Source of the DNA: Candidatus Danuiimicrobium aquiferis
GTDB lineage: Bacteria > Omnitrophota > Omnitrophia > Omnitrophales > Danuiimicrobiaceae
NCBI GenBank assembly: GCA_001804285.1
Contig: MHFR01000053.1
Location: 15,857-79,856 of the forward strand
Length of the DNA stretch: 64,000 nucleotides
Direction: 5' to 3'
In this document: positions 2,051 through 64,000 of the stretch, in pieces
How positions within the stretch are numbered: position 1 is the first letter of the stretch
How the letters are laid out: the number at the start of each line of letters is the position of its first letter
Program-made: the position numbers and the translations under genes
The notes under the pieces: generated by a model
The model's database searches: none
Seen by the model: only the letters and a program-made list of their open reading frames with translations
Told to the model about the DNA's origin: nothing

Positions 2051-5000
2051 GACTGCGAGGACAGGTCGCGCGCTTCGGATGACATCATGGCTAAATCTTC
2101 TTCGCTGATTTTGTAATCAACCATTGTCACTTCTTTGATTGACTGAATGGCTTCGGCAAGGTCCGTCGCACGGGCGAGATTTTCTTCGGTAAACGGATCC
2201 GTAGAATCATTCATCCTGTTGATTTCACTCACAACCGCTTGCCGCAATATGGACAACGCTTCTTCGTAAGTCATTCCGGAATTTCTTAAAACTGCCAACG
2301 CTTTTGTAAAACCCGAAATGTCTGTTGCGTCCGGCGTGCGGAGGAAAACCCGGTCGATAATCTCGCTAAATTGAGTTCCGGGTTCCGAGTTTAAAGTTTC
2401 GAGTTTACCGAAAAAGGGGACAGGCAATCGCTCAACTTGAATCATATGCCTGTCCCCTTTTTGTTTGGAACCCGAAACTCGAGACCCGAAACTGTTTTCA
2501 TTGCGCACTTCCGATCTTCCTAAGTCATTATCCGACAACGGCTTAGCGCTCCATCCCAATTTCTGAAGCGCCGCCTCCGATTTTTCATCCTGAACCTTCC
2601 GGTACATCTCAACCAAACGGTCGGCGTTCGCCGGATTAAATTCAAGGAGCATCGCATTCCCTGCAGGACTCACATGAACATCCACCAATTCCCGGAGCCC
2701 GTCGAGCGGTTCATCGAATGTCGGAAGTGACATCACGTCCAGAATCCATTCAAGGCCTTTGACCAGGCTGAGAGGAGAAGGAAAAAGATTCCGGAAATTC
2801 TCGGAAGCTTGTTGAAATTGATCGAGAGGAATGTCATACAGCACAAAATGCGGCTGAAGTGAAAATTCAGGGAAGGCCCCAACCAAAGATTGATTCATGC
2901 TTTCAAGGCTTTGAAGCAATGCCTCCGGTGTCCGCAATTTCTTTCCTAATCCCCGGTAACGTTTCCCCACCAAAAATCCGTCGGGAGGAATCCGGCTGAC
3001 GAGTTTCGGCGCCCGGGCTTCGCGCAAAAGATCTTCCTTCACCAACTCAGCAAGTTTTTGAAGCACCCGGTTTCCGTTCTGATATCCAATGCCATCCTTT
3101 TTGCCGTCCCCGCTCTGAAGCCTATGATATGCGCGGCCGGCCGATTTCTTTTCTAAAATCGCGTGCTCCGCAAAATAATCCCGGACGGACAGCAACATGA
3201 GGTTGTTCATCCTTCCATGGGCTAAATGATGTTTAAACGTATCCATATCCAGCGTCTTCGTTAGGGGATCCGGGTGAGCGCGAAGCATCCCTTCTTCGGC
3301 CTGTTTCGCTAACTTTTTCTGTTCAAGCGCTTCTCTTAACTCAACCACTTTCTGACTGAAAGCCTCGGAGGATAACCGTTTGCCTTCGGGAACGATATTT
3401 CCGATCCATCCTATGGAAGAAAGGACATAATTTTGATTCCGGCCGTTTTGTTTTGCTTTTGAAAGCGCATCGTTCGCGAAGCGCAATCCCCATATATAGA
3501 ATTCATCCAGCCGGTCTTCGCGAAGCTTACCGGCCTCGTCGACCCAATAATTCGAACCGGAAAAGGGGACAGGCATATTACTCAAAAGAGAGCGATTGCC
3601 TGTCTCCTTTTCCATATCCGTCGTCTGCGTGACCAAATAATCAAGCACTTGCTTGGCGGAAACAGCGCCGAGAGAAATGGTGAGGATATTTTCAAACTCA
3701 ACTGCGAGCAACCGCCCGGACGGAAGTTTTAATTCGTTCATGAGTCGCGCAAGTTCGACGCGTTGAAAAAACGTGCTGTCAGGGGAAGATGTCATTCCCA
3801 CGGAAGTGGGAATCCAGCTGGATCCCCGCGTACGCGGGGATGACACTTCTGAGATTGCTTCGACAATATTCTGACCGCCATCTCGCAATGACACGCCGGG
3901 GCCTTGTTTCCTGACCAGCAAATTAAACCCATTTCCATGCCGGACCGCCGCGACGATATATTTCAATCCCATGGTTCGGATCATTTTCTGGAATTCCTGG
4001 ATGTCTTTTTCTTTGTAGCCTTTTAAATCAAGCCGGTAAATCGCATACCGGTTTTCAAATGCCTTTGTGTATAACCCGACCGGTTGAGAAACAAATTCAG
4101 ATCTTCCCATTTTGGGACCGGCAAACTCCAGCACCGCTTCGTCTCCGCCGACATAGCGATGGATCTGCCCTTGCATGACTTGATTCAGGATTTCCCGCGC
4201 TTCACGGTATAACGAGACATTCGCGATGATGACATCCGGCGACGGCTCGTTTCCAAGCGTTCCGAAAAAGCGTTTCCCGAGCGCATCATTCCGGGCACTT
4301 AATAGATCGGAATCGATCATTGAAAAATAAAATTGGTCAAGCGTACCGGCTTTTGCGTGCATTTTGAGTTTCTTAAGATGCTCGACTTCACCCTCCGCCT
4401 GTGATGTAAGCGGATCCGAGGATTCAGTGCGGACTTCAGCTCTGAATTGAGTTCCTAGTTCCGAGTTTAAAGTTTCGAGTTGATCTGTTTGTCCTAACCC
4501 GAAACTCGGAACTCGAAACTCTGAACTATTTTGCAGACGCACCTCTCCCCGTTTCCTTATTGGTTCTGTCACCCCACCATTGCGCATTCCCGGTGGAATA
4601 AACGCATCAACAACGCCGGCTTCCATGCCAATGTTCTGATAAAACCCGTGGTCCGGCTGAAGTGGAACGCGAAGCGTAACGACATTTTTCGGCGTCGCCG
4701 GCGCGAGATATCCTTCGTCCATTTCCCTGAAAAATAAATATTGCCAACCTGCCCCATTTTTCTGAACAAGCTTAAGAAAATTGGTTTCATTGGGATCAAC
4801 TGCTTGCAGTTCGCCTTGGGGATCCACCATGCCAAGCATTCTTAATGCCTCCCCGGCCAAAGCAAATTCAGGATAACGAAAGGATACCGGCGTCAGCATC
4901 CGATGCAAATCCCTCAGCGCTTCCACGGACCCCGCATACGCTTTCACGAAATTCATCACGCTCGGTTCGGCTGCTTCGCGCTTTTTTCCTCTTCCGTCCG

Positions 5001-8000
5001 GCCCTACATCATACTTTTCATCAATCGCTTTTTGAATGGCGCCAACTTCATTAAAGACGACGAGTACTTTTATATTCGCATGCACAAATTCTTCTATCCT
5101 CACCACTGGTTTCGCCAGCAAGCCCTCAATCAGTTTAATGCTTTCGCGCAAACTGGTAGTAAACCCCGAACTTACGCCGACTTTTAATTTACCGGCCCTT
5201 TCCCCCAAAGAAACAAGATTTCCACGGAGCTTGAGCAACTCTCTCTCGGGAGTCACAACCTGCTGCTTGAAATACGCAAAAAGCGCTTTCTCGGAAATCG
5301 CCGGATCGGCGGGCTCAAAGAGTTCGGAATCAACAGGAGCTTCTGCCGCCTTTTCCGTTTCAGAGAGGGAACCAAATCGCCGTTCGTAATTTCGCATCAC
5401 AAGTTCTTCCGCGATTTTCCAGTTGTCACGAAGCTTGAATAAAATGGTCCGCGCACGCGCGCGTTTTGCCCCGTCTTTCTTGAAAAATATGCCGATGAAA
5501 CGCCCCACCTGCGCGAATTCGCTTTCCGAAAGCCCAATGGTTTTGATCTGAAAAAATTCACGCGCTTGATTATACGCTTCACGAATAAAGCGATATTCGT
5601 CCAAACCAAGTACGTTAAACGCCGCATTAAACGAAGCCATCACCAACACTTGCCTCTTATCAGGACGAACCTGTAAACTCTCTTTCCCAATTTCCGCGGA
5701 CCGATAAAACCGGCTATACGATTCATTCAGGTTCTTCCTCAGAGCCGCTTTCCCGCTTTCAGATTTATCCAGGGCTTGATACATCGCAGGAATTTCCTGC
5801 TCTAAGTCTTTCAGAAAACGGTCAAATTGTTCTTCGGAAAAAGACAAGTCCAACGATCTCTGCTGGTTCGGCTGTTTGTATTTGCTGAGCAATTTGAAAA
5901 ATCTATCCTCCATGATAAAGACGCCTTTCGCCAATTCCACTCCGAAAGCCGGGGGAAACAATCCGGAAGGCTGCATGAGCTTCTCTGCGGGCGACCGCGA
6001 AAGAACAACACCGACCCCTCGCTGAATTTCTCCCAACTCGGGAATCTGCATCACTTGAATCAATTCCGGCGCAACAGGATTTTCCGACAAATATTGTTTT
6101 TCGGGCATCAATAAATAGGAATAGCCGGTATGTGCCATCAGCTCCGGACCCGAGAGGGGCTGGGGATACGTTTCAAGATTAACACGCAATCCGGTCTCTC
6201 GAATAGACCGGAAAAAACCGCGCTCCGGAGTGGCAATCAAATTGTCCTGCTTATCTCCGGAAACAATCCCGATCATCAGATGCGGCCCTTTCTCCGGGAC
6301 ATCGACTTTCAATAATACCGGTGCTGTATCAAACACCAACTCTTTCGAGAGTTCGCTGAGCGCGTTGTAAGCACCCACATATCTTTTATTGACCACAAGC
6401 ATTTGCATTCTCGGCATAAAACTTTCCGGTTTATACCGTTTGTTCATCGATTTGCGTGCGCTGGCGCCAAGTTTTCTCAGATTATTTTCCAAACGATTAA
6501 ATTCCGATAAAGCCACATCCCCGGAGCTTTGCGATCGTATACGATCAATCATCTCCGTGCTTTCTTTGTAAGACGCTCTGAGGCCATAACGGTCGTCTAA
6601 TCTTCCGGATTCCGGATAAATTCGCATTTCTTCACAGGCGTTTTTCAATTCTTCTACGGCTTTCGAAACCACTTCCAATTTGTCCTTGCTCACCGTGACG
6701 GACTGCGCAAAAAAGGCATCGATTGCCGTTCTTGCCTCGTCAGCATTTGCCGTGTCAAAAGTACTGCCTGCCGGAATTTTGGTCCGCACGGTGAAAACTC
6801 CGGCCGGAAATGAAAACGTTGGTTTTTCCCGTTTCGCGTCCGCAGCAGACGCCGCTTTAGCCTGTTCGAATGCTTTACGATTTAATACAAAAATATTTTT
6901 CGGCGAAATATCCGGAAGCGGAAGTTCATGCCCCATCACCAAAATTTGCCAACCCGGCGTCGCCTGAAACATTCCATCAAATCCGCTAAACCGGACCTGT
7001 TTCGATGAATCTTCAATATCGGTATAAACAAATGTTTCAAAATTCGCCCGGTAAATTTTCCCGGACGAATCAACAAGACCCATGATAAAGACCGGTTTAT
7101 CGGCTCCCAGGGTGGGGATTTCAAATCCGGGAGCACGGTACTTGATAAAAACGCTGGCGATGTGGTCTTGATACTGCCGGGTCAACGCATTATCTCCCGC
7201 CTGAAACAAATCGATGGCGCGATGATCCATAAACTGTTTGCTTTCAAATAACCACGCTGCTTCGCGGCGTGCTCCGGTCACATATTGATTCATCTGATCA
7301 AGCACTTGAATGATCTTGAAAAACGACGCATGCCCCTTTTGGTCGATCAGCTTCTGTAATGCGGCCGATGCGACCGCGAATTTTTGATCGAGAGAATCTG
7401 TAGCATTCGGATTATTTTTCCGGTGCCAGGCATTCATTTGCCCCATCGCGGTTTTTATAATTTCCAATGCGTTTTTGGGAACAGAAAAAGGCAATCCATA
7501 ATATGAATCAAATACCCTTTTCGCGACAACAGGAGCTGCGGGCGTTAAATAGTCAGAAGATTTTTCCGCTGCTTTATCTTTGTCCAATTCTAATCGCAAA
7601 TTGACACTTTGTTCAGACGCTTCAAGCCCGACGACAAAACCGATGGCTTGCATCATTTGGGCCGGTTCACTGAGCGAAATTTGCGTCACTTGAGAATCCG
7701 ACATGAAATAATCATTCCAAATGAGTGATAGCGAAGACATTCCGAGCGGCGTAGCTTCCCGATCGAACACTTGATGATCGTAAATAGAGGGACTCGCCCA
7801 TAAAATCGTGTGCATTTTCCCGTCATCAATAATTAAAAAGAGCGGCTCGGACTTTCCCTTCCCCTGCTTCGATCGCCAATAGACTAATTTTGCGACGGCA
7901 TTTTCCGGAACCTCGAGGGCGAGCGGACCGGTCAATTGTTTCGCATTCAACTCAACCACTTTATAAAAAACTTTTTGCTGTCCACGCGTTTTTGAAGAGA

Positions 8001-11000
8001 CCGTGTACGTTCTCACCTTTTCGACCTGATCAATTTGGAGCCTTTTGGCCGGTTTCTTCTCTGCCTCTTTCGCTTGAAAGGCTTCAAGAATATCGGCTCC
8101 CCACAAAGGATACCGGGAATCCGCCTCTCTTGATTGCGTGAGCCATATGGCAGAAAAAGCTTGTTGAAGCACCCCTCCGGCATCGTGTCCCGGTTCAAGG
8201 AAAGATTTCGCAACGGAGTCCACCACGTAAGCATACATCCCGGAAAAATTCAATATAGGCGCCGGCGCACCGGTCAAAAGTTCGAGTTTCATTTGGCGCA
8301 AGACTTCGTCGGAAGGCCTCGATAATCCGGCCAAAGCTTCATGCAATTTAGGTAAAATTTCTTCTTTCGTCACAAAAATTTTCTTCGGGGCTTTGGCCAT
8401 CATCTCTTTCACAGAGACATACCTCCCTGCAAGAACGTCTTTATTCAAAGCACCGGCTCCTTCCATATTACGGGCTAAATTAATTTGTTGCGCTATCTCC
8501 TCCGCCGTTTTGTTCTCTAATTGATCGAATAGCTGTCCTTGCTCCGGCGTCAGGCTTTCACGGGGAATCATTAAATTCAATAATGCGGCTGCGTCTTTGG
8601 CCCGGTCCGACAAAAGTACCAGAGGGCCTTTCGAAACACTCGCACCGATGGTTTCAAAAAAGACATTAATGGAATCCCAGAAATCAAATTCAAATGCCGG
8701 CGAAGTGGCAAAATATTCACGGATAATACTTTGATCCGTTTGAAATTTTTCGATCACAATCGATACAAATGCCAGGAGCGCAATGGCATCCGCTTCCCAC
8801 CGTTCGAGCAGCGTCCGTTGATCGGGAGAAATCTGTCCTTCGCGAATTAACTTTTGCAGATTCCGCACCGTTTTTTCCATGGTTAGGAATATTTCAATGT
8901 TTCCTTCAAAGCCTCCGGCCTCATCGTTTCTGTTGAGCACTTCAAAGATCGATATTTCCTGTAAATTGGTCTCGGCGCGCAAAGACGGATCGGCAACAAT
9001 CCGGTCCATGTGAGCCGCATGCATGGCCATCGGCGAACCGGTTTCCTTTAATTCGTCGACGGACTCTGAAATGGCCGTTTCGATCGCACCGATCGCCTGC
9101 GTGGCTTGCGTTTTTAATGTTTCAAAATCATTCGTCTCGCGGCCCGCAACTAATTTTCCGATCATGGCTTTGGATTTTGTATCAAAATTCAGGATATCAT
9201 CTTCTAATGTAGCTATCCGCGCCGGATCTAACGTTAACAAAGGATGAACCCGGGACTGTATGACGCGAAGTTTCGCATCCAAACTTGTTTTCGCTGCGGC
9301 AACACGATCTTGCAATTCGCGAGTCAGTTTGCGATTGAACTTCTGGGAAACCACTTGGGCGCGCTGGCTTTCAAATTCCCGCGCTTTGTCTTCCGACACA
9401 ATCCACTGCTCCGAAATATTTTTGCTCTTGTCGCCGATCGCTTCATTTAATTTCGCGACAAATTGAACCTTGGCGTCCCGGCTTAATAATCCCATAACAC
9501 CCACCGGCAGGTTCTCCATACGGACTCTTCCGCCTTCAATATCAGCTGCCAATTCTTTAATCCACGCAAGATGATCAATCCCTTTGCTGCGTTCTTTTGC
9601 GGCTTGCGCAGCAGTCCGGAAGCGTTCGGGAAACTTCGTAAACGTATTCGCATTTGCCGCCACCAACGTGATTTCAGAAACTTGTCCAAAATACGGAATC
9701 TCGACCGGCTGCTTGAACCGGAGCATGATCCGCTTCAGCCAGTATTGTTCGTTTTCAAGCACGACTTCAATATTTCCGAAATCCGTTTGCCTGCGAAGCG
9801 CCGCGGGGACAGTTTGATTGGTATTCAATCCGGGAATTATTTCCAAGCCCAGATTAAAGGCCTGATTAATTTCATTCCACCACACAAGCTGCTCGGCCGA
9901 CCGGACGGGAATCCGAAGGACCGACCGGGGATTTCCTTGCGAACCGGCTGCGGATCTCAACTGTTCGGGAAGCGTGACCAAAAGTTTGTCAAAAGCTTCG
10001 TCCTTGGACGTGATCGAATCAAGCTCCATTACCCGGATGTTGTCAAAAGAAAACCATTCAAGAAAAATTTTGATGAACCGGTCCGCATCGTGATGGAAAA
10101 AACCCGCCTCTTTGATGAATGATAAAACACCAAAAAGTGTACGACCGATTTCCCCTTCGCTGTGCGAATCAATCCATGAGTCCGTAAACATTTTCCGCAC
10201 CATTTCAATCAATAAATCACGTCCGGCATAGTCACGGGAGATATGTTGATCGAGGAAACGGTTCAGGTCTTCCGTGAAAAGTTTTGCGTTAAATTCCATT
10301 TGCTGGAAAGCGGCGTCCATCCCGCTCTGAGCGGAGCCGGGCAATGCGAGCGCGATGGTCCGTAAACTTCTTGCGATATAAGGAACCAAATCAGGTTGCG
10401 CCTTGGCCAGCGCCATGAGCTCATCGAAAGAGGCCCGGACTTCGCTGCGCTGTTCTTCCCGAATTTTTTCGGCAAGTTGATCGACCTTTTCTAAACCATT
10501 ACGATTCTTCGGCGAAGCCAATAAATTAATCGCGGCCTGGTCCAGCTCATCACCGGCCGAAATTAATATGTGTTTTAATTTTTTCGTAAGCCGGTCCACC
10601 TTTTCTCCGCTTAAAAACCATAAAACGTCGACAGCCGTTCGAATGCCCGAAGCAGGCTCCCCGGACGCGGCGAACCGGCTTAATCTTTCCTGGATTGTTT
10701 TTTCAATTGAATCCCGAAATCCGGAAAAACCTTTTTCACTGTAGATCGATCTCAGAAAAATAAGTTCGGCTGCTATCGGCGAACCATCTTCATTCTGCTC
10801 AATCGCTTTTCGAACGTCCCGAATCACTACGATGCCAACCCCGGCGCTGAGCGGTTCGAGCACTTCGTCAACATACCGGTGGACCGTTTCTTCTTCGGTA
10901 AAAAGATGCGCAAAAACCCTCACTTCTTCAAAAAGTTTCCGGACCTGCTCGAATGAAATGTCCGGCTTAGCCGCAAGATCATGAACATACCGGTACATCT

Positions 11001-14000
11001 CTTTCAGCGTCAGGGAATCGACCCCGCTATAAAGCTTGAACCAGTCAACCTTATACCGGTCTTCCGGATGCTCCAGATAATGCTTGAAAAATTCCATTCT
11101 TAGTTTTGACAAATCATCCCCAAACCACGACCGGTCTCCTCTAAACACGGCGTTAGAGGTCGGCCCCTTTTCCGAAAAGCTGAAGAACGAAATCAAAAGC
11201 AGTTGAGCACTCATTGATAATTCTGCGTCATCAGACCAGATGCTTTGATAGACCAAATCCGCGAAATGCGCCCCTTCTTCAAATACAAAAGCGGGGATAT
11301 TGTCTTTTGTCGCTTCCCGGGAGAACATTTTTTGTTGCAGCAACGAAACCGTTTGTCCGAGCTCTACCGTGTAGAACGACAGCAATCCCTCGCCCACCGT
11401 ACGAATGACGTTGTTCAGCGTTGCATCCGATTGTGCAAAAAAATCATCGGCGCGAATGATCGCGTCTGCTTCTTTCAACCGCGCCGGTAAAGAAGAGCTC
11501 CGGGTATCCGGCACGAGCGCCGCGACAAAATGTTCGTATTGCGGATGGCGAGTCCCGACCGTCTCGGCAAATCTAATTTTCGGATCGCCGGCTGTCCGCC
11601 GGATCGCTAACATACACAAAAACTTCAGATAAACCTGCACATTCTCTTTGACGTACATCTCATCAAAATATTTTCTGATTTTTTGGAACGCTTTATCTCC
11701 GAAGTTTTTGTTGATGGCGGCAACAAACGGGACTGAAATTTTATAATTGATGTTTCCGGCATGCCGGTCCACCAGATGCACATGAAACAACACTAAATAT
11801 TCGAGTAACGGATTCGGCGCGCGGGAAATATATTCGATGATCGCGTCCGCGGCATCACGCGGCCCCAGGTCCGACCTGATAAACGCACGGGCTCTTTCCA
11901 CCGAAGCGTCAATATCTCCAAAGAATTCGGAACGGTCCGCTGTGGCCCCGCGATAAATCGTCGCCATGATACTGCGTTCGGCGAGCAAATGTTCCGGGAC
12001 CGGTTTTCCTTGTTGGTCCGCAATTAAAAATTCATTCACTTCCGCGTTTAAATCTAAAATTCCGTTTCCGCTTTTCCCCAGATCTCCGAATTCATTAATG
12101 ATATATTGAACGACGGCCGGCTTTTCGCGCGGGCCCTCGGCTGCTTCCGGTATCCCGGAAGAAGTCATGCTTTCGGCAGGAATGTGGAGCCGTAATCCCC
12201 TGGGATCCTGAATCACCGCTCCGCCTTTTCGTCTTGTTTCCGCTTCAAGTTCATCACGCGGGTCCTGCATGAATGAACCCGGCCCCATTTCAAAGACTTT
12301 CACATCCCGCGGGAAACCCCACCGATCCGCCAAAGCAGGATCGATTTTTCCGATCACGCGTCCGCCTTGACCCATATTGGGACCGTCAGCCGGTGTCTCC
12401 GATACCGGTTCTGGCCCTAAAGGACCGCTTTGCGGGAGAACCGGAGTTGTTTCCCCGCTCGACGCAGCAACAGTTCTTGTATACTGATCATAATTTGCAA
12501 CAGCCAACTCGTTAATAGCGCGAGCAACTGCCTCGATTTCCTCGACAAAAACTTCAAGTTGAACGTGCAACGCCGGATCAACATTCGGATTATCGGCCCG
12601 CGCAGAACCAACGCTTAGCTGCAAGGATTCCCACTCGGAAAGCGAAAGAAATCTCCCCTTTCTGATCTTTGCATATAACGATTCCTGGCCTAATGCTTTA
12701 AAAAGAGGGCCGACAGAACGCCGTCTTACCACTTCAAAGAAAGCAAGGCCACGAGAAAACTTTTGCAAACTTTGTTCAAGAAATTGCGGCTGTCCTCTCA
12801 CCATCGTCTCGGCAAACAGAATTCGTTCTCTCCCGCTATTGAGCGCCTGATTTAACTTATTCCTTCCGCTTTCGGTATTTTGACCGATATTTTTGAAATA
12901 TTGTGCATGGGTAACCGGCGACAAATCATTGAGCGCAACTAAAAACTGGTGATATTCTCTTTGCGAAAGATTCCGGTTTTCATATAGTCGTGTTTTCTTA
13001 AAAATCCCGAGATTCGTCAGCGCGGTATTCACCGCATCGTTCATGATAAAGAAACCGCGGCTCAACTCAACTCCTAAAGCAGGATCTAAATGGCCGGAGG
13101 GTTGAAATGGTGATAAATCAATTTTCGGAAGAATATGACTTACTGCAGCCGGTAAGGTTGTTTCGGGTGTCATTGCGAGGCGAGAATCTGCTGGTTGCCG
13201 CGGCAATCCCTGCTCTAAGATTGCTTCGTTCGCCTCCGGCGAACTCGCAATGACGGGCGTGGCCGGTGCTTCAGGCTCAGCTTCTTCGGCTTCTATAATA
13301 GTCTCTGCTCCCGATGCGGCAACTGAAGGAGCTATCGGTTCAGCTATGGATTCTGGGAGGACTGGCACATCAACGCCGGACCTTGGCGCTTGGGCAACCC
13401 GTCTTCGCATGGCCAAAGTTCTTGTTTCTTCTTCAGGATAAATTTCGCGGGGCAATATTTCTTTCAATAGAAGCAACGACTCCTCGATCAACCCGCGAAT
13501 TTCGTCAAATATTTTTTCATGCTCGGGCAAATTCGCCCTAATCCATTCGCCGTCAGGAATCGCACCACGAAGCCCGACCAACCTTTTCACCAACCGGACA
13601 TATTGCTCGTTGATGTATCTGGCTTTCGTCTGTTTTGTGTGTTCCGCAACACGGTTTTTTGTACTCCGGACAAAATCCCGCACCGTTTCCGGCTGGGTTC
13701 GAAGAAACCCGTGCAATTCCTGCGTGGTCAATTTGGATTTGACGGTCTTTCTGGTTACGATTGATTCGGCGTGAATTTTTTCCCCGAGCTTTTTTCTCCA
13801 CTCGTCTAATGCGGGAACCGTCAATTCATTGATCCGCAGCCTTTCAAATTGGCCTACCAATTCTTTTCTGCTCCAGGATGAAACCACAGCGTCCTCCGGT
13901 AACACTTCCGCTAAAAATTGATTGATCTCGACGAACCGGTAATCTTTCCCTTTCACGTATCCCGGCAAACTGAAATCTTCCAGCTCCTCGCCATTCAAAA

Positions 14001-17000
14001 CAATCAGCGTGACCGGTTGTGCGGGATCGAAAAGGTCGGGATGTAATTCTTTGAGCAATGTATATTTAATAATGGCTTGCCCGATATCCGCAATGTCCGA
14101 ACCCAGCTTTGCGTCATAAATTCCCCGGTTCCATATATAGTCGGGAGCGCGATATTCCGACAAAAGCGGGTCGGACGCCACAAATCCGTCATAATCAAAG
14201 CGGCCCTGGCTCACGTGATGAAAAACAAGCGCAACCAATCGTTCGAACACATCTCCCTTCAGCTGCGCGTAATCCTTGGGTTTCCGCTCCGCCGTGCTTG
14301 CGGTTCGCTTCGCCGGCGTGTCTTTCTCCGTTGTGGTCGACGCAATCGCCATACTCCACTCTTCGGGTTGTTCCGAAAGCTTACCCATTTTGCGAATGAC
14401 GATCGCTCCGACAGAATCCGCATTCTTTTTCACTTCCGAAACAGATAGGTTCTGGGCCACGGCCGGCGAATCTTCGCCGAGCAGCGCGGAACCATTTCGC
14501 GGGACATAGATCTGTAAACCAAAACTATTCGTATCGGCATCGTAAAACGGAACAAGGTAATATTCGAGATGCCTGTATTTTGCTAAACCCGAAAACCGGA
14601 CAGGAGAAATAGATTCTTCCTCACCTCTTTGAATTTTCAACACATAAGCCACATCCTCCAACCCTCGCTGATTGACGGTCACGGCCATTTCCGGCTGCGC
14701 AGAACGGATTCCCGCTAACCATTCTTTATACTCTTGGGGCAAATAGCCTTGAGACATGTCTAATGCATAAGTTTTCTTGACCGGTTTCGGCCGTGCGGCT
14801 GGCTTCGCGCTCTTTTCAATAATACCCTTCCCCCATTCGGCCATCAGCCGCGGAAGTCCCATCCCGAGGTGTTCGGCTATAAATTGAAGCGTCTCCATCG
14901 CCCCTGTAAACATACTACGTAATTCATCGGTGCTCGGTTCGTTTGCTAAGGGTTCGGGTTCAAGCCGGACTTCTTCCAAAACCGCTTCTTCGGGCGCCGA
15001 GACAACCAGCCCCAGCCCTTGCTCCAAAAATTCGCGCGTTGCCGCTTCCGTTTGAACCGGATAAGTGCCGAGGAATTTTCCGCCGGAAATTAAATTTGTT
15101 TTGTCGGGAGTTCTTCGAATAGCTTGTGCAATGGATTGCAATTTTTCATGATCTTTCAGCGTTGTCTCATTCTTTTTTTCGCTGACCGACAGGATATAAA
15201 TATGTTTGCTGCCGGGCGAAACATAATACACAACGCGAAGGAATCCCTTCGTTCCGCTCCCCAATGGAAAATCTCGAAGTGGATTTAAGTCCGCAAACTT
15301 CGGCGTCTCGCTGCTTCGTCCTTCGAGCAATGTCACCAATTTGGCCCGAATGTCAGGCCCGTAGGCTTGTGCCCGCGCCGTTAATTCGCGAAACGCCTGG
15401 TCCGTCAGAACAAGGCTCCGGTCCGTTTCAATCCTCACCCGGAGCGGGGAAATTTCAAGAAGCTTGATGTGTCCCTTCCGCAATTGACCGTTTGCGCGTA
15501 AATGTTCCAATCCCGGAGGTAAGTCGTCAAAATGGCGCGTACGGATTTCGAACCGGTCATTTCTGAAATCGTTTTCCAAAGGCCCGGCTGCCCGTTCGAA
15601 AGCCGCCGTTAAACTGTGCTCCGTCAATTCAGGACTTACCTGGATCACCCGGACATTCCGGTTGTGCCTTAAAAGTAAACGCATGGCCGATGAAATATTT
15701 TCCGGCAAATTTTGCCAGGCACCGGTTCCGACGCTATATTTTGTACTCGTCAAATAAACGGTTTGACTACCCTGATTTTTTTCCCGGATAAAATGAACCA
15801 GCGGTACCGTGGCAGTACGGGCTTCGGACCTGAATTGAGTTCCGAGTTCCGAGTTTAAAGTTCCGAGTTTACCGAAAAAGGGGACAGGCATATGACTCAA
15901 GTTGAGCGATTGCCTGTCCCCTTTTTGTTTGCTGTCATTCCCGCGGAAGCGGGAATCCAGCTGGATCCCCGTTTGCACGGGGATGACACCCTTGTTAGCT
16001 TTAAAGTTGCGAACTTCCGCCCGACCGGCACCCCCCAAACGTTGGGCACGATCAAACACACCCACGTTATGTTTTGCCCATCGCCTGATTTCAGGATCCG
16101 TCGAATTTAAAAACGTTTCCGAGTCCCAAATATTAATCAAAATGTCCTGCGCACGCGAAATCCCGACATTCCGGCGTTTCTTCCCGTCCACCGGGTCCGC
16201 CAGAAATCCGACCGATCCGCCCTTGTTTGAACGGACCCACGATAAAATGACTGCTTTGTATTCCGATCCGATCGACGAATCAACGGTGATCACTTTAAAA
16301 GCGCCGCTTGACACATCCGCCGAAGGAACAAATGAATTCCCAAGGTCAAGATCACGGAGAAATTGCGTAGCCATTTCCTTGGTCGGCTGTGCGATAAAGC
16401 GCCGGACATCCGCATCAAATAATTTCATTTCTTCCTGAATTATTTTTTCCCGCTCGGGATAAGCTTTTTGACGAAAAGTCGGATCTTCACGGCTGAACTC
16501 CTGGAAAAGATTTTCATGCATCCGGAAACGGACAAATTCTGATTGGAATATCAAATTCAACGCAGCGGCAGATTCTGCGGAAATCGCCGGCGGTCCTTGC
16601 GCAGAAATAACAGATGAAAACGCTTCATGAATTTTCGAAAAATGAAGCAACGCATCCGAAATCATGTCAACCTGCCTCTGATAAGGCGAAATGACGGCAA
16701 TGTCCTTCGCCGCGACACCCTGTCGATTGATAAGCCGGTTCACCCAGCTCACAGCTAAGTTAATTTCGCCGCGGTTAAAGCGGCCCATTTCATCCACTTG
16801 CCCGGTCTTCTCTTCCCGGTAAATTCCTCTTGTATCTTCTTCAATGACGGTACCGTCGACATCACGCCCGGCAATTAATTTCCCATGATAAAAATAATTA
16901 ATGAGATCCACGATCAAACGGCCGGACCGGCGTTGAATATCGAAAAAATAAAAGGGCGGCTGCGTCACGCGAAAAACTTCCGCATCCCGGGTGAAAAATA

Positions 17001-20000
17001 TATTAATCATGTTCTCAAGCAGAGAAATTTTAAATCGCCCCAATTTTGCGGGATCGAAGATTTTCGAAAGCTGCCGTGTCCCAAACGGGGTTTGAATGTC
17101 CCGTATCTTCCAGATCAGAAACTCGTTCATGGCAAATTTAATGTCGTCGTCCCCCAATCCATAGGCCGGCAATTGTTCGTGATCTCCGACAATCAGTACT
17201 TTTTGCCGACCGCTGGACGACCCCTTAAATTTATAAACGGGGAGGAGCGTTTCAGGAACCGTTCCGCGGCTCGCCTCATCAATAATAATCACATCGGCAT
17301 TCCATAACTGGGGCCTCTTTTGAAGGTCCGAGTCAAGCGGCATTCCGTTTGTCGTTCCCAAAGTCAATGTCCCTTTTCCGGCCGCGCGCAAACGAACTAA
17401 TGAATCCAATTTCTCTTCTTTCACATTCCACAAAAGCTCCAACACTTTCTGGTCAATCGGCTCTTCGTTATTTCCAACGCGGGCAATCGGTCCTTGCCCG
17501 TCTTTAAGAAGTTCCCGGTCCATCAATTTGAGTGCCACATTGTCAACGCCGGGATTGGTTTGTGACAAAATCAGCACTTTCCGTCCCAATTTTAAAAATA
17601 ATTCCGCAAGCCAAACAATCGCTGTTGTTTTTCCGGTTCCGGGGGGCCCTTGATATAACGCGATCGGAACGGAACTCATCAGACCTTCGATAACACCCGC
17701 CTGTTGAGCTTTATCAAGCTGCTGTTTTTCGGCTTGTTCCTTGGCTTCAACCGTCGTTTCAATTAATGCGTGTTCATCGCTCACCCGCCCGTTTTGTGCA
17801 GGATCCGAAATAAACAAAGAAAGTCCCAGCAACAAATCAAACCGGGGATCTCCCGTCGTTGCTTTGGAAACTTTTTCGGAAATACCACTCGCTCCCAATT
17901 TTTTTAAATCAATAGCGATATGTCCGTGTGCTGTCCGCCCGAGATTTGAAACTACATCATCCAGCATATCTTTTTGATTCACCCACGATGAATTCTTGAT
18001 CCGGATGAGAGCTCCTCCCTGCTTCAATGCATCTTCAAGCTCGGATTTGATATAATCGTAACCTGCGGACACCTTCGGCAGTTCAAATTCCAGAGAATCG
18101 GTCCCGGTCTGCTTCACGCGGAAAAAGGGCTGTAACGCCTCGGTTTTCCCTTTCGGCTTAATCCGGAATGTATCGCCCCGCCAAACAAATCCTTTCAATT
18201 GTTCTGCCGGAATACCATGCGCAATAAACCCATTATGCGTAAACTCGATGGTTTGGAATGTAAATTCAATCGCGGCAGACGGTGGGAGCCCTTTGGCTCG
18301 TCTCTCCCGTTCATCGCGTTTGTTTTCCGCTTCGACCATGGCCCCAATCATAAAATCATCGTCAATCAATTGCGGCATCCAGTAATTCGCCATGGCGTGT
18401 GAAATCACAATCCTTGCGAGTTCCAAATAATTCTCGGACGCCGGATAATCCGCATTCAACTCAAACACGAGCCGGCTCCATTGAAAGGCTTTTGTATAAA
18501 GCCCGTCATTCAAGGACCTCAACGCTTCCTCTAAAATGCTTTGATACGCTTGGTCCCGATGCTCGGGAAATGTAGCAAGTTTCTGAACATTTTCAAAGAA
18601 AGAGGCAATCGGTCCGTCTTTTTTAATTTGTTCTTGATATTGACGGACCAGGCTTCTCGATTTTTCGATTTGTTCAAATAAATTTTCGACATCCGTCCGG
18701 TTCCGCGCAAATGGCCAAGATGTCTCCGCGACGGCAACAGCCGCCTGAAGCTTACGTTCCGCTTCTAAATACCGGCTTTCGTCCATCAATCCCGAAACCT
18801 CGTCAAGGCGGCTCGCAAATGCTTCAAACGCTCTCACCAATCCTTTAATGACGACGTCTCCCGCCGGTCCGGCCTGAAGTTCTGTTAAAATCCCGATTCC
18901 CTCCGGTCCTTTTCCCTGCTGAACCAAGGTTCGCGCTTGTTGAATTTTTTCGATATTCGAACGGATTCGCGCGGCTTCGGGATTCTCCGGATTTACACCC
19001 ATCAACTCATCAATCGTTTTAAGCGCTTCTTCAAAATTCAAATGTTTATATTGATCGCGCATTTGTTGAAGAAGACCCTTCGCCTTCGCAACCCGTTCGG
19101 AAAGTTGAGCGATCGCTGTTTGAACCTCTGGCTCCGTCGCCCGAGGATTGATCTGACCCAATAACCGGCCGGCGTCATCATAACGGCCCTGATCGTAAAA
19201 ATCGCGCGCGATTCGAACCAGATCCGGGCCGCTCAGATCATGCATCCATTTTTTCAAAATCGCTTCCACCTTTTGCCGGATCGCCGAAGCCATCTCCGGC
19301 CGCCTTGATACACCGTCCAAAAATAAATAATCTCCGGAATTGGGCGTAACAGCAGCTTCGTATTCGGCCAATATTTTACTTTCCCGCGAAACGGATTGTT
19401 GCCCCGGCTGTTCGGTCAGTGTTTCGATATGCGATCGAATCATGGTTCTCAAAAACTGCGGATTGATTATTTTGATGTACCACAGAATTTGCTCGATTTC
19501 CCACTCTGCGAGCGGCTCATCCGGCGCAGACAACAATAAACTCGCCCATAAATTGAGAATACGCTGAATCTGCTCCGCGGGAAGCATTAAAACAAAACTG
19601 GCAACCGATGACCTCATCGTCTCCGGATGGTCGGATGAATCAAAATACCGCTTTAATTTTTTCCTTATTTCACTCACGGGAAGCAAGGTTTCGCGAATTG
19701 TCCGGAGCGCGTCTTCTTTCCGCTGATTTAAATCATACGCAACGGCAAGCATGGGCGAAATATATATACTGCGATAATAGTCCGCCGGATATTCCTGCTG
19801 CGTGGCGACCAGAACCGATTCGAGCGCCTTGTCATTTTCCCCCTGCACCAGATGGGAAAAACCTTTCGCCATTTGAAACGGGACTTGAGCGCCCCGGCTT
19901 TTTGATTCCTTAGTCAACCGTTCATATTGGGGGAATAATCGCTCCAGTGCCGCCTTCATTTTTTCAGCTTCGGACAACCATCCATTTGAGCGCGCAATAT

Positions 20001-23000
20001 GGTAAGCCATAATCAAAAATTCAACACTGCGGATATATTGCCCGGAAGAACCTTCTTTGATTTTTTCCGGTTTTTCCGCAATCGGAATCATTAATTTAAC
20101 GAATGTTCCAAATTCCTCCAAATCCCAAGCCAGCCCGGCCACTTGCATTAAATCCTGAGCATCGTTTTCAGAAAGAACAAAATCAAGAGAACGATTTAGA
20201 AATTCCGTTAACGCGCGTCTCCCCTCCTCATCCGACTGGAGCTTTGCATAGAACAACCCAAGCGAAATATAAGGCAGTGAATCTATCAAATCCCGGAAAG
20301 GCACTTTATTTTTTGCAGGCAGCCAATCTGGTTTTTTTTCTACAAGTTCTTTGACCCGGCTAAACCAATGATCCAAATATTGAGCGCTCTCCTTTGTTTT
20401 TCCCGTCATCATCGCACCCATGGAAGCCATCGCCGTCATTTGAAAGAAAGAATCATTTTTCAAAAAAACTTTTCGCGCTGAACTTACATCTTCTGTTTTT
20501 CCGCTCCCTGTTGCTTTTTTAACTAATTCGGCTGCTTTCCTCTGGTATTCCTGATGCAATCCTTCCACCGATTGCCAATCGCCCGCATCAGTAAAAACCT
20601 TGGTTAATTTCATCAATAGTTGCAGACTTTGTGCATCCGCAGAAAATATTTTAATTTTTTTAAGCAATGTTCCCCGTTCAGCTGCAATAAATTCTCTGAG
20701 TCCCTCGACCATCCGAACCTGCAACCAATTGAGCCGTCCGGATATTTCGAGAAAAGAGTCCAAAGCAACCACCCCCATTAAATAGAAAACCGGATGCATA
20801 TGAGTTGCCCCCATCATCTCGCTCATCTTCTGTTCCAGGCTGCTAATTTGTGAAAAAAACACTTTGGCGTCATAATCCGCCCGAATAAATTCTCCGGTGA
20901 GCCACTCCGTAAACTTAATTTGCCGGCGCTCGTGAAGCCTCATCGTTGAGATGGGCCCGGCAATAATTGAATCGTGGTACATGTCGTCATAGCTGACTGT
21001 CCTGGACGCAATTTCTTTGGCTTTCGCCTGAAGCCGCGCATACGTAACTTTGTTTTTTGCGACTCCCATCATTCGGTGAATCCGCCTCAAAGCACTCAAC
21101 CTGTTTTCGTCTTCTTCACCCGCTAAAAGAAATTCCAATTTTTCCCAGTCTTCCTCGCTCATGGTTTTTTGATTCAAGACCTCCCATGTCTGATTCATCA
21201 AATCACTCATTTCAATGTCTGTATACCGGTTAGCAAATTTATACAAGGCGAGGAATACAGATTTTTCTTTCGGCCATTCGTTCAACTTCCCCAAAATGGC
21301 TGACACCAAATCAGAAATCTCATCGCCGTGCCCGGACCGGTTGAGTAACGCAAGTTGATTCAAATGAACCTGCTGATCAATCTCCGGAAGCCGCAGCAAG
21401 ACTTCCAAAAACAATTTAAATATCTGATGCGCCTGTTCGTGACTCCCTGTAAGTTGATATAGACGCGCCAAATCAAACAGGACATACATCAGGAAAATAT
21501 TTTCTTTGGTGTTTCGATATTTTTCTGCAAGTGCGCTTAAAATATTGATCGCTTTCTGATACTCTTTCTGATACAGGGAAAGAGACGCGAAGAAATAAAA
21601 CCGCCAATCCAACGGGTCTGTGTCGCCCAAATCGTCCGTCAGCATTCGGAAAGCCAAAACATCTTCACGAACAATATCCGTTGCCTTGGCAAAAAATGAA
21701 ACCGCGCTTTGGTCCGCCGTATCCTCGTTTAGCAGCTTTGTCGCCAACATCCGCAAAGCCGCAAAATGAATCGTTTTGACGATCGGAAGACTATTTTTTT
21801 CTCCCACTAGCGGAGTCGTGATCTCAATCGTTTTGACCAACTCTTCATCACCGGCCAGCAATAAAAATACTGCCTTCTCAGATAGCAATCTTTCCTGAAT
21901 TAATTTTTTAGATTCCTTATCTTTTCGAAAAAATGATGACCGCTCCACTAAAACCAGGGCTTGATCAAGCCATTTTATTGTTTGGGTGATTTCATCGCTT
22001 TGAAGCGGCAGATTAAATTTTCGCAAGACTTCCGCAAAATCAAGGGTGGCAAAAGCGCGCCGCTCTTCCAGGAAGTCAGGCTCTCCAAGCAACATTTCAA
22101 GTTCCACCCGCATTTTATCGTACCGTTTAAGGTCCCTGAAAATATCCACCAGCAGCAAACGCCGGCCGATCAACAATTGAGGCTGATTCTGAAATACAAT
22201 CAAGGTTTCATACGTCATATGAATGAGCTCTTCATAATTTCCCTGAATCCTTAAAATAGCCTCGGCCATATAGTAATAAAGAGGCAGTTCCCTGCTGATA
22301 ATATTTTCCTGCGAAGAGAGTCTCACTCTAGGGTCATGCATCTTTCCAAGTGCAAGACGGGCCGGTTTTATTCGCTTTTTCAATTCATCGAGAATCAGAT
22401 TGAACTTGGGCTCAACATCGGCGAAATGAATATCGGGCTGATCGAGTCTGAACTGATGAGCCAGTTTAAGCCGCTTTAAGTCTTCTACAAGTTTCTGAAT
22501 CAAAGCGTCACTGGGGATTTTATCTTGTTGATATTTTTGCAAGGCCACCAAAAAAGAACCCGCGTCCACTGGTTCGGATGCGCGGGCTTCGGACCTCAAT
22601 TGAGTTTCGAGTTTACCGAAAAAGGGGACAGGCAATCGCTCAACTTGAGTCATATGCCTGTCCCCTTTTTGTTTGTCATTCCCGCGGAAGCGGGAATCCA
22701 GCTGGATCCCCGTTTGCACGGGGATGACACCCTTGTTAGCTTTAAAATTGCGCATTTCCGATCTTCCCGGAGCTCCGAGATATTTAAAGATAGAAGAAAT
22801 TTGATCTTTGAGATGATTGACTCGCCCGTTTTCCACAGATCCCTCAAGTTCTGTTACCGCAACGATTACTTTTCGAAGACCGCTCTGCAACCGTTGATAA
22901 TAACGCTCACGGATTTCCGTAGAAAAATAAACGCGTTGAATTTCCGCAAGCCGTGAACGGAACGACTCCAATCCCAGGGGAAGAATTTGAACCAGTGGCG

Positions 23001-26000
23001 TTGTTTTCAAATAATCTCTCAACCCGCCAAGCGCTTGGCGGACAAGCTCATCCCGGTATAACGTATAAATGTTGACCCGGTCTTGTTCAATTCTTGACCG
23101 GATTCTCAAAATCTCATCGATCCGGATTTCAATATACCGTTGCGCGGTTTCGATCGACGTTCTTGCGCCTTCCATATGTCCTTCGCTCAGCATCGTTAAC
23201 GATTGCTGTAAACTGTCCCCGGGTAGCGGGAGCACTTTCCCGCCGGCATCTCTATCGTGAACGGGAGTTTCCCGCCCTCCCAATCCTTTTTTGCCATCCA
23301 AAACTTTACGAATGTCTTGCCGGATCATTTCTGTGATAGTCGGTTCAACTCGTCCTCGTTGAAGAAATGCGGCATACCTTTTCATATTTTCAAGTGCTTC
23401 ACCCAAAATCTGGTGTTGTCCGAAAAACATCCCGAAATCTTCATGGTAATCCCGTAAAATATCATTCCGGCTCCGCAACGCTTCTTCCAAATTATCATAA
23501 TGAATGCCGGTTAAAACGCTTTCGCGTGACGTTCCGCCTCCGGCGACCGGTACATTTTTCCAAACATGCTGCCAAATAATAATTTTGCCGTCCGGAAGGA
23601 TTTCGATCCGTTCAACTGTTTTTTCCCTCGGCGAAAAATTTTTGTTCCGCCATTTGTATTCATAAGAAATGTCTTCGTAGGTTTTGATGATCTGATCGAA
23701 AAGATCGATAATTGAAGCCTGCTTCGGAATCGGAACCAATAATTTTTTTCGAAGCAACAATAATTGTGCTTTTAATTTCCGTTTCAGCCATCGGACGTTT
23801 TTCTTGCTCAATCCGTCGATTTCCAAAAGATTACCGATTTCTTCGGGAAGTTTAAATTGAGAGTTGATATTTGCCAAGATCGGATCGAACTCCGCGATTT
23901 TTGCTTGCAAAGCAACCGCATCATCAACCAAATTGCCCAACTCCTTTAGCGGTTCTATTTCTTCCGGAATATCAGGAATGATCTGGCGGATATTGATGTC
24001 TAATTCGGAAATAATTTCCGCCATGTCGGCAGCAAAGGCCCTTTGAAGTAACACCCGGCTCGATGAATCGGGATGATCTGCCCTTGCACTATTCCATTGG
24101 TGTAATAAGGCCAAAACTTTCCGCCGGCGCCTGTAAAATTTAATAATATTACCATCCGTCACTGCTTCCGCCGCCTTTGCTGATTTCACCGCGGCGCGGG
24201 CTTCAGCCCTCGATACATGTCTCTTGGAACGTATCGAGGACACTTGCGCGCTTTGACCAATGTCTGCTTTGGTACTATTTATATTGTTGCGCGCTTCGGA
24301 GCGCGTCCCCTGTGTCATTCCCACGGAAGTGGGAATCCAGCTGGATCCCCGCGTATCCGCCACTAAAGCGTTGGCGGATCCGACCGCATTGTTTGGCGGA
24401 CGCGGGGATGACAATCCTTGGGCTGTTCCATCGCCTCCGGTCGCTCGCAATAACGTGCCAATTCCGCGGACTTCGGATCGTTGTGCACCTTTCACCCGCT
24501 CGTGGAGACGGAGAAGCGTCTCGCGATTGAAAGAAATGACATCTTCAAGCCGTTCGCCAGCTAAAATTTTCTTTTCGATTTCTCCGCGGAAAGAATCTTC
24601 GATTCCGCCGAACTCATCGTCCGGCATGTGTTTGTAAATCACATCATAAATTACCATTTCAAGCTCGACGAGCTGCTTCACATATTGTTTCCGCATCCGG
24701 TTATTTTGAGTCTCATCCCTGCCAAACAAAATCGTCCGTCCATCTAATGCGTTTAACGTGTCGCGAACATTGCGCAATCGTTTTCGCAACCGTTGATAAC
24801 CCGGATCTTCAAACTGCGGCGGGAAACGGTTCCGCAACTGATCGATTTCTTTGACGGTTTCTGAAATCTTCGCGCCGTCAAGTAGCACCTGCACGGGTTT
24901 CCGGACCACATCCCGCACTTCCATCGTTTTCAGGGCGATGTATTTCGAAATCCTGATATTTTCATCCACATAATTTTCAATATGAAAACGGGCCCAGCGA
25001 ATCGCACGAGCGAGCACCTTGTCGTCCGTAAACAAAAACGCGAGCTCCGCCCCGACCATGTCATCAATCACGATCCTTCTCGAAGGTTTTTTGCCGCGAG
25101 ACGCCCATTCCAGCACATTCGCCAAATTGTCACGGATGTGTTTCCGGGCTTTCTGCCTTGCGTCCGTCACGCCCGGAATATCTTTGTCGAGTTGGCCTTT
25201 TTGAAGTTCTTTTAAACGGCCCAGGGCATCGTCCAAGTATCCCAACATATCGTAAGCCGCCATGTTCGCTTCCGCATAACTCCAAAGCGTGTGATCAAAT
25301 GCGCGCAAAAGATCAAAAACATTATGATACTCGGCCCCGATAAGATCAGCGGAAACGGTATCAATATCGGCTCTTCCATATTGATTAAAATTCGCTTCAA
25401 TATTTTCTTGCTCTTTTTCATCATCCGCTTTCGATAAAAGAAATTCCTCAATATCATCAAAAATAACGCCATGAAGTCCGTTCTCTTCGATGACCCCGCT
25501 TGTGAACACTTGAACGACAGCATCTACCGAAACCTCGCTGGCTTTGCCTTTGATTTTTCCGCCTTCCTCACGAATCCGCGAAACCACGAAATCCTTAAAT
25601 CCCGGCAATTCCCAATATGGCTGAATCAATTTCTCGACGGAATTTTTTAAATAAGCCCGCTGCCGCCGGTAACCGATCCGCTCGACCACCAGCACATCCC
25701 CTTTGAATAATTTCCGGATTTTCGCTTTCACATCCCCGCGAATTTCACCCGTCGCCGAATCAAGAAGTTCTGAACGGACCTCCTCCGTGCCGAGCACGCT
25801 GCGGAAGAACTCCTTACTTAAAAGATAATTCCCGATACTCCATCCCTTGATGTCTTCTTGTGTCATATAGCGAATGACTTCCCGCCGGCCGGCTTGCCTG
25901 ACGCGTTTCCACAAGAATTCGCGCTTGAGTGCGTTCATGTGATAACGTAGCTGGCGGAAACGTGAGAATAACACTCCGAGCTTCGGCGAATCCGCCGTCA

Positions 26001-63996: not shown

Positions 63997-64000
63997 GATA

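Follow-up and report, generated by a model that had tools for sequence, protein, structure and literature searches.

The gene g1 of Candidatus Danuiimicrobium aquiferis (Omnitrophota; also named Omnitrophica bacterium RIFCSPLOWO2_12_FULL_44_17, from the Rifle aquifer metagenomes) is a giant open reading frame (ORF) encoding a protein of 13,117 amino acids (aa), which carries a Upf1-like superfamily 1B (SF1B) helicase together with several other enzyme domains. It lies in a stretch of 64,000 nucleotides of contig MHFR01000053.1, here called the window, in which every notable feature is located on the minus strand; g1 itself runs uninterrupted over 39.4 kb (1495..40848, GTG start). With a probability of about 0.6, we read g1 as a giant, modular, envelope-associated and partly exported multi-enzyme protein of the Omnitrophota equipped with a nucleic-acid helicase, and not as an anti-phage protein. 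This reading draws on observed domain identities, conservation pattern, taxon and gene neighbourhood. The object belongs to a known class of Omnitrophota giants and is new in its hallmark, a conserved TPR region joined to a Upf1-like helicase.

The family of g1, apparently restricted to the Omnitrophota, would share three conserved elements: (i) a signal for export at the N-terminus and, after it, a module of ~750 aa with a hydrolase fold of the EreA/ChaN/TIKI type; (ii) a TPR region and, behind it, a Upf1/IGHMBP2-like SF1B helicase with intact nucleoside triphosphatase motifs and a family-specific helical insertion; and (iii) a C-terminal tail with Ala as its last residue (SAA, SA or AA). Between these parts g1 has methyltransferase, cyclic nucleotide monophosphate (cNMP)-binding and shikimate-dehydrogenase (SDH)-like domains, which would be lineage-specific additions, other members carrying different enzymes.

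The helicase and the TPR region

The helicase core is encoded at 16099..17718 (g1 aa 7711-8250, with motifs I-VI at 16147..17718). Pfam detects AAA_11 and AAA_12 with 82.4 and 78.4 bits, respectively (cut-off 27), over g1 aa ~7715-8240 (window ~16100-17720). The closest relative of solved structure is human IGHMBP2 (4b3g, E 2.6e-25, ~25% identity), to which motifs I, Ia, II, III, IV, V and VI are collinear; the NCBIfam IGHMBP2 family (TIGR00376) scores 114 bits against a cut-off of 348.9, which is far short of the family threshold. An AlphaFold model of the helicase reached a predicted local distance difference test (pLDDT) of 74 and a predicted template modelling score (pTM) of 0.75, and its Foldseek comparison with the PDB returned IGHMBP2, Sen1, Dna2, Upf1 and ZNFX1 as top matches (E 1e-18 to 1e-15). 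The helicase motifs quoted in the initial annotation of this DNA, which was made from the letters alone, are present in the translation of 16100-17800, and the SF1B Upf1-like fold proposed there is confirmed by Pfam, by 4b3g and by the AlphaFold/Foldseek comparison. The catalytic motifs also prove to be conserved: in an alignment of 40 helicase sequences, composed of g1 and 39 stand-alone relatives, every invariant column is retained in g1, while two near-invariant Gln residues are replaced (see below).

Relative to IGHMBP2, the g1 helicase has a helical insertion of ~115 aa between motifs IV and V. The family consensus carries DExSRAT in motif II, not DExxQ, and an insertion between motifs IV and V, and both are therefore traits of the family. 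The TPR-containing region (17719..20301, g1 aa ~6850-7710) adjoins the helicase and is conserved with it in the homologues. The helicase is genuine and Upf1-like and is predicted to be catalytically competent; we infer an ATP-driven 5'-3' translocase acting on single-stranded RNA or DNA.

A family of giant helicase proteins

An exhaustive phmmer search with g1 aa 7100-8270 yielded 35 proteins below 1e-30, and at least 35 other long proteins share the module at 33-38% identity. The top relatives are 3,227-7,818 aa long and are 35-38% identical to g1 over ~1,050 aa comprising the TPR region and the helicase. Nine of the ten representative relatives with a named source are Omnitrophota (Candidatus Omnitrophota) and one is labelled Elusimicrobia. 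A word-indexed search with the helicase region gave only stand-alone IGHMBP2-like helicases of 600-700 aa with ~25% identity and did not return the query's own protein. As this protein search returned nothing longer than ~1,500 aa it is blind to giants, and a result of no homologue from it is uninformative for giant genes. A contig scan found a single relative, the Omnitrophota contig L011 from groundwater in New Zealand, which consists of one open frame collinear with g1 aa 6205-8218.

BLAST against g1 and the two neighbouring giant genes g2 and g3 showed six homologues to carry both the N-terminal ~750 aa and the TPR-helicase block and to have nothing else in common with g1, the spacing between the two parts varying by protein from 1,600 to 5,600 residues. 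Pfam domains were assigned in 11 relatives: AAA_11/12 is present in all 11, and the companion domains are one-off, including GGDEF, EAL, PAS, PCMT, PTA_PTB, PEP-utilisers, an epimerase and a helix-turn-helix domain. Since the homologues are devoid of the methyltransferase, cNMP-binding or SDH-like parts, the enzyme combination of g1 is an accident of its lineage. The initial annotation had described this combination as not known, which is true in detail; it is idiosyncratic, the homologues keeping only the TPR-helicase block and the N-terminal module. Judged from the sequences compared, the family has its conserved core in the helicase module, with accessory enzymes that are exchanged from one member to the next. 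Signal-like N-termini are consistent across the members of the helicase family.

Some members and their loci have features of their own. In P0160 (2,774 aa, Ca. Omnitrophota MBF0252414.1), one of the smaller members, a Serratia-type DNA/RNA non-specific endonuclease domain (147 bits, aa 295-507) is fused to the helicase of the family, and the protein has the tail ending in Ala. The homologue P0134 (4,219 aa), composed of N-module, helicase and tail, is preceded by a gene for 3,216 aa with Glyco_hydro_15 and alpha-amylase domains (L013:173-9823). Tandem large genes thus recur at such loci, as at those of g1 and P0134; the flanks of P0134 are otherwise little annotated, and the neighbours of the homologue P0131 are housekeeping genes.

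N-terminal signal and N-module

The first 41 residues of g1 (40726..40848) form a signal-peptide-like segment, with RYSYK, a hydrophobic core and VYA followed by Q, judged by eye from hydropathy and from an alignment with the N-termini of the homologues. The presence of this hydrophobic segment is in line with that part of the initial annotation which had called the protein membrane-anchored.

The N-module (38209..40686, aa 55-880) probably has an alpha/beta fold of the EreA/ChaN/TIKI/TraB-like type, which is split by a helical insertion of ~400 aa. In the alignment the signal-like N-terminus is followed by the motifs QDAH, LEGGEG, GIE, FYE..R and TGGFHS.G, in which the His of QDAH, the Glu of LEGGE and GGFH are invariant or near-invariant. 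The module had no match in Pfam, its profile found nothing among the PDB sequences and Foldseek with its model gave no significant result. It is common to g1 and g2 at 39% identity. In the Omnitrophota genome GCA_016206945.1 the N-module is a separate gene of 954 aa with its own stop codon (L012:9153-12017), directly downstream of mreB-mreC-PBP2-rodA. This stand-alone gene fits a growth of the giant genes by module fusion.

Cysteine depletion, internal signals and tail

The products of g1-g3 contain 0.06% Cys (13 in 20,627 aa), compared to 1.26% in 11 neighbouring genes (L001:10001-19279), a depletion of ~20-fold; the g3 fragment in the window has 0 Cys in 2,743 aa. Among the homologues several have 0-2 Cys per 3,000-7,500 aa (P0134-P0138 are equally Cys-free), and others are near-normal. 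Four of the 13 Cys of g1-g3 stand in a lipobox context after an internal signal-peptide-like segment, whereas shuffled sequences give 0.1 such sites. Three of the four internal signals follow twin-arginine motifs of the form RRxF(L/M/F)K.

Two of these segments are in g1. The twin-arginine and lipobox segment at 34009..34086 (aa 2255-2280, g1 ...TRRRFFKIAAVFAGLGVSGC) reads TRRRFFK...GVSGC and leads to C2280, and the one at 27832..27918 (aa 4311-4339, g1 MRDIKHTTRRTFLIKTAAYFGLAGFVGAC), which has a Met, a twin-arginine motif and a lipobox, reads MRDIKHTTRRTFLIK...FVGAC and leads to C4339. The other two, in g2, are a twin-arginine lipobox signal at 47865-47942 (g2 ...NRRTFMKYAGYAGGLFGLVISGC) with C2581 (Cys codon 47865-47867) and a Sec-type lipobox signal at 45675-45764 (g2 MKQPGPKGLRGIGFAMLSAVAAILPLAAGC) with C3311 (Cys codon 45675-45677). 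By their motifs, i.e. an RRxFLK-like stretch, a hydrophobic core and a lipobox Cys, the segments match lipoprotein signals of the twin-arginine translocation (Tat) and Sec pathways, cleavage and acylation being putative. They are located 2,250-4,310 residues inside the ORFs and not at a protein N-terminus. Two of the internal segments begin with Met. No convincing Shine-Dalgarno sequence lies ahead of the internal signals of g1 and g2, nor does a start codon ahead of the g1 2280 site, which makes internal initiation unlikely there. A scan of 53 long homologues for internal lipobox signals gave false positives only.

The last ~70 aa of g1 (1498..1707) form a tail with a hydrophobic helix (...ALVALSKK...) and the end ...TGSAA. 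The tails of g2 (41307-41520) and g3 (55768-55980) end in ...KAA and ...RAA, respectively, each after a hydrophobic '...LLSKK' helix. Out of the 53 long proteins of the helicase family, 28 are Ala-ended (SAA, SA or AA), often as ...LYKxQxxVIxSA. We know of no earlier description of such a tail, which may be a signal for sorting, secretion or degradation.

In a hydropathy scan of the 13,117 aa of g1, a single hydrophobic segment stood out at the N-terminus and 2-3 weak ones further inside. As there is no transmembrane segment between them, the orientations of the N-terminal and the internal signals are incompatible within one uncleaved chain. For the second hydrophobic segment of the homologues, the positive-inside rule favoured no topology. 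LPxTG motifs are at or near chance. Taken together, the Cys depletion, the internal signals, the tail and the N-terminal signals point to an envelope or export destiny.

Other domains of the three giant proteins

The class I S-adenosylmethionine (SAM) methyltransferase domain of g1 is TehB-like (34555..34956, aa 1965-2098) and is matched by Methyltransf_25/11 at ~1e-11 over aa 1965-2114, above the Pfam threshold. Its motif I is degenerate, reading LSLGAWLGHD (Asp to Ser, Gly to Trp; window 34870-34920, aa ~1976-1992) versus xLDxGxGxG, so that SAM binding is doubtful and the domain may be inactive or repurposed. The methyltransferase of g2 (42906-43454, g2 aa 4052-4234) also passes the Pfam threshold, and its motif I, LDIGTG, looks normal. 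Both methyltransferase assignments of the initial annotation are therefore supported. Its description of one giant protein is correct for the helicase, a methyltransferase, the cNMP-binding domain and the SDH-like domain, which share the single 13,117-aa ORF, and incorrect for the two methyltransferases, which belong to different proteins, g1 and g2.

The cNMP-binding domain (31675..31869, g1 aa 2994-3058), which had been noted as a cNMP-binding-like sensor, is borne out by a marginal pass of PF00027 (28.7-33 bits, cut-off 27.5). The AroE-like dehydrogenase fold suggested at the same time is found again in the SDH-like NAD(P) domain (28087..28803, g1 aa 4016-4254), with PDB entry 4k28 at E 4e-20. 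In an alignment with YdiB and 4k28 the Lys/Asp dyad (K in ...QPWK, D in ...IDG) and the GGAGGAG loop are retained. The best NCBIfam score is 87.5 bits against a cut-off of 235; the match begins at profile position ~45-50, and the first ~45 residues of the shikimate dehydrogenase family, i.e. the N-terminal substrate-binding part, are undetectable in the g1 domain.

Two further assignments did not hold. A kinase-like fold in g2 (49100-49700) had no match in Pfam, NCBIfam or the PDB sequences. The proposed HExxH peptidases are an enrichment of the motif only (5 observed, 0.37 expected), four HExxH segments giving nothing relevant and no peptidase family in Pfam at E<=5.

A module of g1 at 32173..34074 (aa 2259-2892) is shared with g2 at 29% identity; it starts at the internal signal and includes HEFQH. 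It has no Pfam match, and the word-indexed search with aa 2240-2900 was empty, a search which, as said, is uninformative for giant genes. In g3 a NAGPA (phosphodiester glycosidase) domain is found at 60391-60789. The g3 fragment has, unlike g1, at least six hydrophobic segments, with an HEGEH site between two of them. A C-terminal domain of ~330 aa is common to g2 and g3 (28% identity; 41307-42300 and 55768-56760) and has no match in Pfam, NCBIfam or the PDB.

The locus and its neighbourhood

g1 is the last of three giant genes in tandem, following genes for 9,320 and 4,766 aa. g2 (41304..55604 from the ATG, GenBank OGW81558.1) encodes the 4,766-aa protein, which has the N-module, two internal lipoprotein-type signals, a methyltransferase and the C-terminal tail and is without helicase. 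g3 (55765..64000) is cut by the window edge, leaving the C-terminal 2,743 aa of the 9,320-aa product; the full length is seen on longer public contigs with identical proteins, where the ATG at 63996 is internal (L007:1-9840). The locus therefore consists of three tandem giants with ~27,200 codons in total. The identical 13,117-aa product of g1 is called on contigs of independent assemblies, and a self-BLAST of g1 showed it to be non-repetitive. The organism is named by look-ups of exact sequences, in which g2 and the neighbouring genes are proteins of Omnitrophica bacterium RIFCSPLOWO2_12_FULL_44_17.

On the other side of g1 a housekeeping gene for agmatine deiminase, here named g0 (124..1260, 378 aa), is found. 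The 10 kb downstream, extending beyond the window, contain housekeeping genes, namely those for agmatine deiminase, a pseudouridine synthase, a class II fructose-bisphosphate aldolase, thioredoxin, a family 2 glycosyltransferase, a peptidoglycan-binding protein, a NUDIX protein and an acyltransferase. No RNA families were found in the window by Rfam, and the intergenic gaps gave no more promoter or terminator matches than expected by chance.

Domains detectable by sequence cover ~9% of g1 and ~91% is without any. One such part, g1 aa ~8300-13117 (1498..15948; ~4,800 aa), has no detectable homologue or domain; PDB sequence searches with the last 4,317 aa of g1 and with g3 and an NCBIfam search with g1 aa 10001-13117 found nothing.

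Interpretation of g1

Omnitrophota genomes often contain giant ORFs, in which few domains can be annotated and for which a part in attachment or predation has been proposed (PMC10066038; 10.1101/2023.11.21.568195; 10.64898/2026.06.07.730766). A role in cell-cell interaction or predation, named in the initial annotation as an alternative to defence, agrees with this proposal (PMC10066038; 10.1101/2023.11.21.568195), which is itself unproven. In our preferred reading, g1 would be a machine of several enzymes, associated with the envelope and exported in part, such as has been proposed to interact with host or prey in this phylum, and its helicase would be an ATP-driven 5'-3' translocase on single-stranded RNA or DNA handling nucleic acid that is most plausibly host-derived. 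In the prey of a cultured Omnitrophota predator, rRNA is lost and RNA of the predator taken up (PMC13153191). This loss and the endonuclease fusion of P0160 are circumstantial points in favour of host nucleic acid as the substrate. The helicase may also act within the cytoplasm of the cell that produces it, where the very long mRNA of that cell would be one conceivable substrate.

Several points weigh against this reading. The function of g1 is so far a matter of inference from its sequence. Helicase action depends on ATP, of which there is none outside the cell, but both N-terminal and internal signal-like segments are present in g1. Two near-invariant Gln of the helicase are replaced, the one of motif II by Arg, which is a family trait, and the one of motif V by Ile, in g1 only. 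Moreover, g1 does not match the 'Archaeovorin-type' giants described below, with no SecA_DEAD, glycosyltransferase, glycoside hydrolase or NUDIX domain detected by Pfam and few transmembrane segments in the hydropathy scan, and no type II secretion system (T2SS) or pilZ neighbours are present within the flanks covered (10 kb downstream).

Among other explanations, the giants could be processed polyproteins, in-frame fusions of former exported (lipo)protein genes which are cut into lipid-anchored pieces at the internal lipoboxes, either by Lgt/LspA or by the HExxH modules, the twin-arginine signals exporting folded modules together with their cofactors, with the NAD(P)-binding SDH-like domain as an example. 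For an NADP-bound enzyme, Tat export has a precedent in the glucose-fructose oxidoreductase of Zymomonas. The four of 13 Cys in a lipobox context, three of them with twin-arginine motifs (0.1 in shuffles), speak for such processing, as do the two internal segments starting with Met, the homologous module of g1 and g2 which starts exactly at an internal signal, and the N-module standing alone as a 954-aa gene in another Omnitrophota genome. The signals, however, lie thousands of residues into the chain, the g1 2280 site has neither a Shine-Dalgarno sequence nor a start codon upstream, similar internal signals are absent from the 53 long homologues, and the orientation clashes with that of the N-terminal signal, no transmembrane segment lying between; we consider processing of this kind rather unlikely. 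A bolder version, to which we give little credence, holds that g1-g3 are secreted polyproteins in which the internal signals and the Ala tail guide the cleavage and the export of modules already folded and loaded with cofactors. The TPR and helicase module, which in one relative is joined to a non-specific nuclease, would reach or enter the host cell, there to unwind its RNA and either destroy or import it, and the near-complete loss of Cys would be an adaptation to the export route. Similarly improbable is a giant adhesin or effector resembling the substrates of type I secretion systems (T1SS), i.e. cysteine-free, exported unfolded by means of a C-terminal secretion signal and held at the surface by the N-module. 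The low Cys content (0.06% in g1-g3, 1.26% nearby, 0-2 Cys in several homologues) and the conserved Ala-ended tail would suit such a protein, but RTX repeats are lacking (two isolated GGxGxD matches only, with motifs at or near chance), many homologues have a normal Cys content and a Sec-type N-terminal signal is atypical of T1SS substrates. No ABC/MFP/TolC genes occur within the flanks covered for g1, P0131 and P0134, and domains dependent on ATP, SAM and NAD(P) would be useless outside the cell unless delivered into a host.

The resemblance to anti-phage or conflict systems, put forward in the initial annotation, would cast g1 as a helicase module of the Mokosh type with sensor and effector domains attached. 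Defence systems often include large helicase proteins of many domains, the top PADLOC match of the helicase is MkoA (E 4e-45, 152 bits) and the methyltransferase matches mad2. The MkoA match, however, covers only the generic COG1112/Upf1-like core, for which the Pfam total of AAA_11 and AAA_12 is about equal, and the methyltransferase match is likewise generic. A nuclease of the phospholipase D (PLD) family, be it a partner (MkoB) or fused (MkoC), is missing: Pfam gives no PLDc match and no other nuclease partner in g1, g2 and the g3 fragment, no neighbouring PLD gene is present, and HxKxxxxD is at chance level. Nor is there a defence island: g1, in the 10 kb downstream, and P0131 have housekeeping neighbours and P0134 adjoins a large glycoside-hydrolase gene. 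Export signals and enzymes of metabolism or signalling are found in the family members. With a match to the generic core only, no nuclease partner, no defence island and a family tied to the exported giants of one phylum, the anti-phage reading was rejected as very improbable. An artefact of assembly or annotation, with the contig a chimera or several pseudogenes joined in a row, might be suspected from the metagenomic origin and from the ~91% of g1 without a detectable domain. We regard it as hardly credible, given that a 39-kb open frame cannot persist without selection, that an identical 13,117-aa product is present on contigs of independent assemblies, that catalytic motifs are conserved and that collinear homologues exist in other genomes.

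Giant genes make up several percent of the small Omnitrophota genomes, as estimated from gene and genome sizes, and most of their sequence is without annotation. The present analysis supplies some handles on them: a subfamily recognisable by three conserved parts, a separation of core from accessory enzymes, and extreme Cys avoidance together with internal Tat/lipoprotein signals, the latter two bearing on where and how giant proteins are deployed. Should the helicase act on host nucleic acid, the giant proteins would be linked to the rRNA loss of prey seen with the only cultured Omnitrophota predator; should the secreted-polyprotein version be true, it would give Omnitrophota a protein-borne device for nucleic-acid predation.

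Comparison with known systems

With IGHMBP2, Upf1, Sen1 and Dna2 (AAA_11 + AAA_12; COG1112) the g1 helicase has motifs I-VI and the two-RecA fold in common. It differs from its IGHMBP2/Upf1 relatives in lying at residue ~7,700 within a chain of 13,117 aa, in its DExSR motif II and in the insertion of ~115 aa. Mokosh MkoA shares the Upf1-like helicase core, whereas its domain environment is different and the PLD nuclease partner was not found with g1. The superfamily to which the N-module is compared, EreA/ChaN/TIKI/TraB/RRSP/HopBA1, comprises erythromycin esterases, the TIKI and RRSP proteases and the type III effector HopBA1; the N-module differs from it by the absence of a sequence-profile match and by the interruption of the fold by the ~400-aa helical insertion. 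As an analogy only, the nidovirus replicase polyprotein is also a giant chain with membrane anchors, protease-like motifs, a Upf1-like SF1 helicase and SAM methyltransferases. Unlike the replicase, g1 has no polymerase and is a cellular chromosomal gene, homology is limited to generic domains, and the likeness is no evidence of kinship.

The closest comparison is with the giants of the Omnitrophota themselves. With its 39.4 kb, g1 is a giant ORF in the sense of Seymour 2023, i.e. longer than 20 kb in an Omnitrophota genome. It resembles the other giants in phylum, in exceeding 20 kb, in being mostly unannotatable with scattered enzyme domains of cytoplasmic type, in its signal peptide or membrane anchoring and in the presence of several giant genes side by side. 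The 'Archaeovorin-type' giants of West-Roberts et al. 2023 have many transmembrane regions and divergent SecA DEAD and preprotein-binding domains; they further contain glycosyltransferases, methyltransferases, glycoside hydrolases, peptidases and NUDIX domains, and have T2SS/pilus genes and a downstream pilZ as neighbours (10.1101/2023.11.21.568195). Of this enzyme set only the methyltransferase was detected in g1, HExxH being present as motifs only, and g3 has NAGPA; no SecA match of Pfam was found in g1, g2 or the g3 fragment. Unlike those giants, g1 is without glycosyltransferase, glycoside hydrolase, NUDIX, C39 and dockerin domains and has few hydrophobic segments. In the texts on Omnitrophota giant proteins 'helicase' stands for SecA DEAD or the word is absent (PMC10066038; 10.1101/2023.11.21.568195; 10.64898/2026.06.07.730766), and a Upf1-like helicase, Cys avoidance, twin-arginine/lipobox signals and the tail are unmentioned in the texts, exclusive of supplements, of Seymour, West-Roberts and Nielsen & Lui. 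Nielsen & Lui 2026 distinguish multi-enzyme, tandem-repeat and dockerin classes (10.64898/2026.06.07.730766); g1 fits the general class of giants and is closest to their 'multi-enzyme' type.

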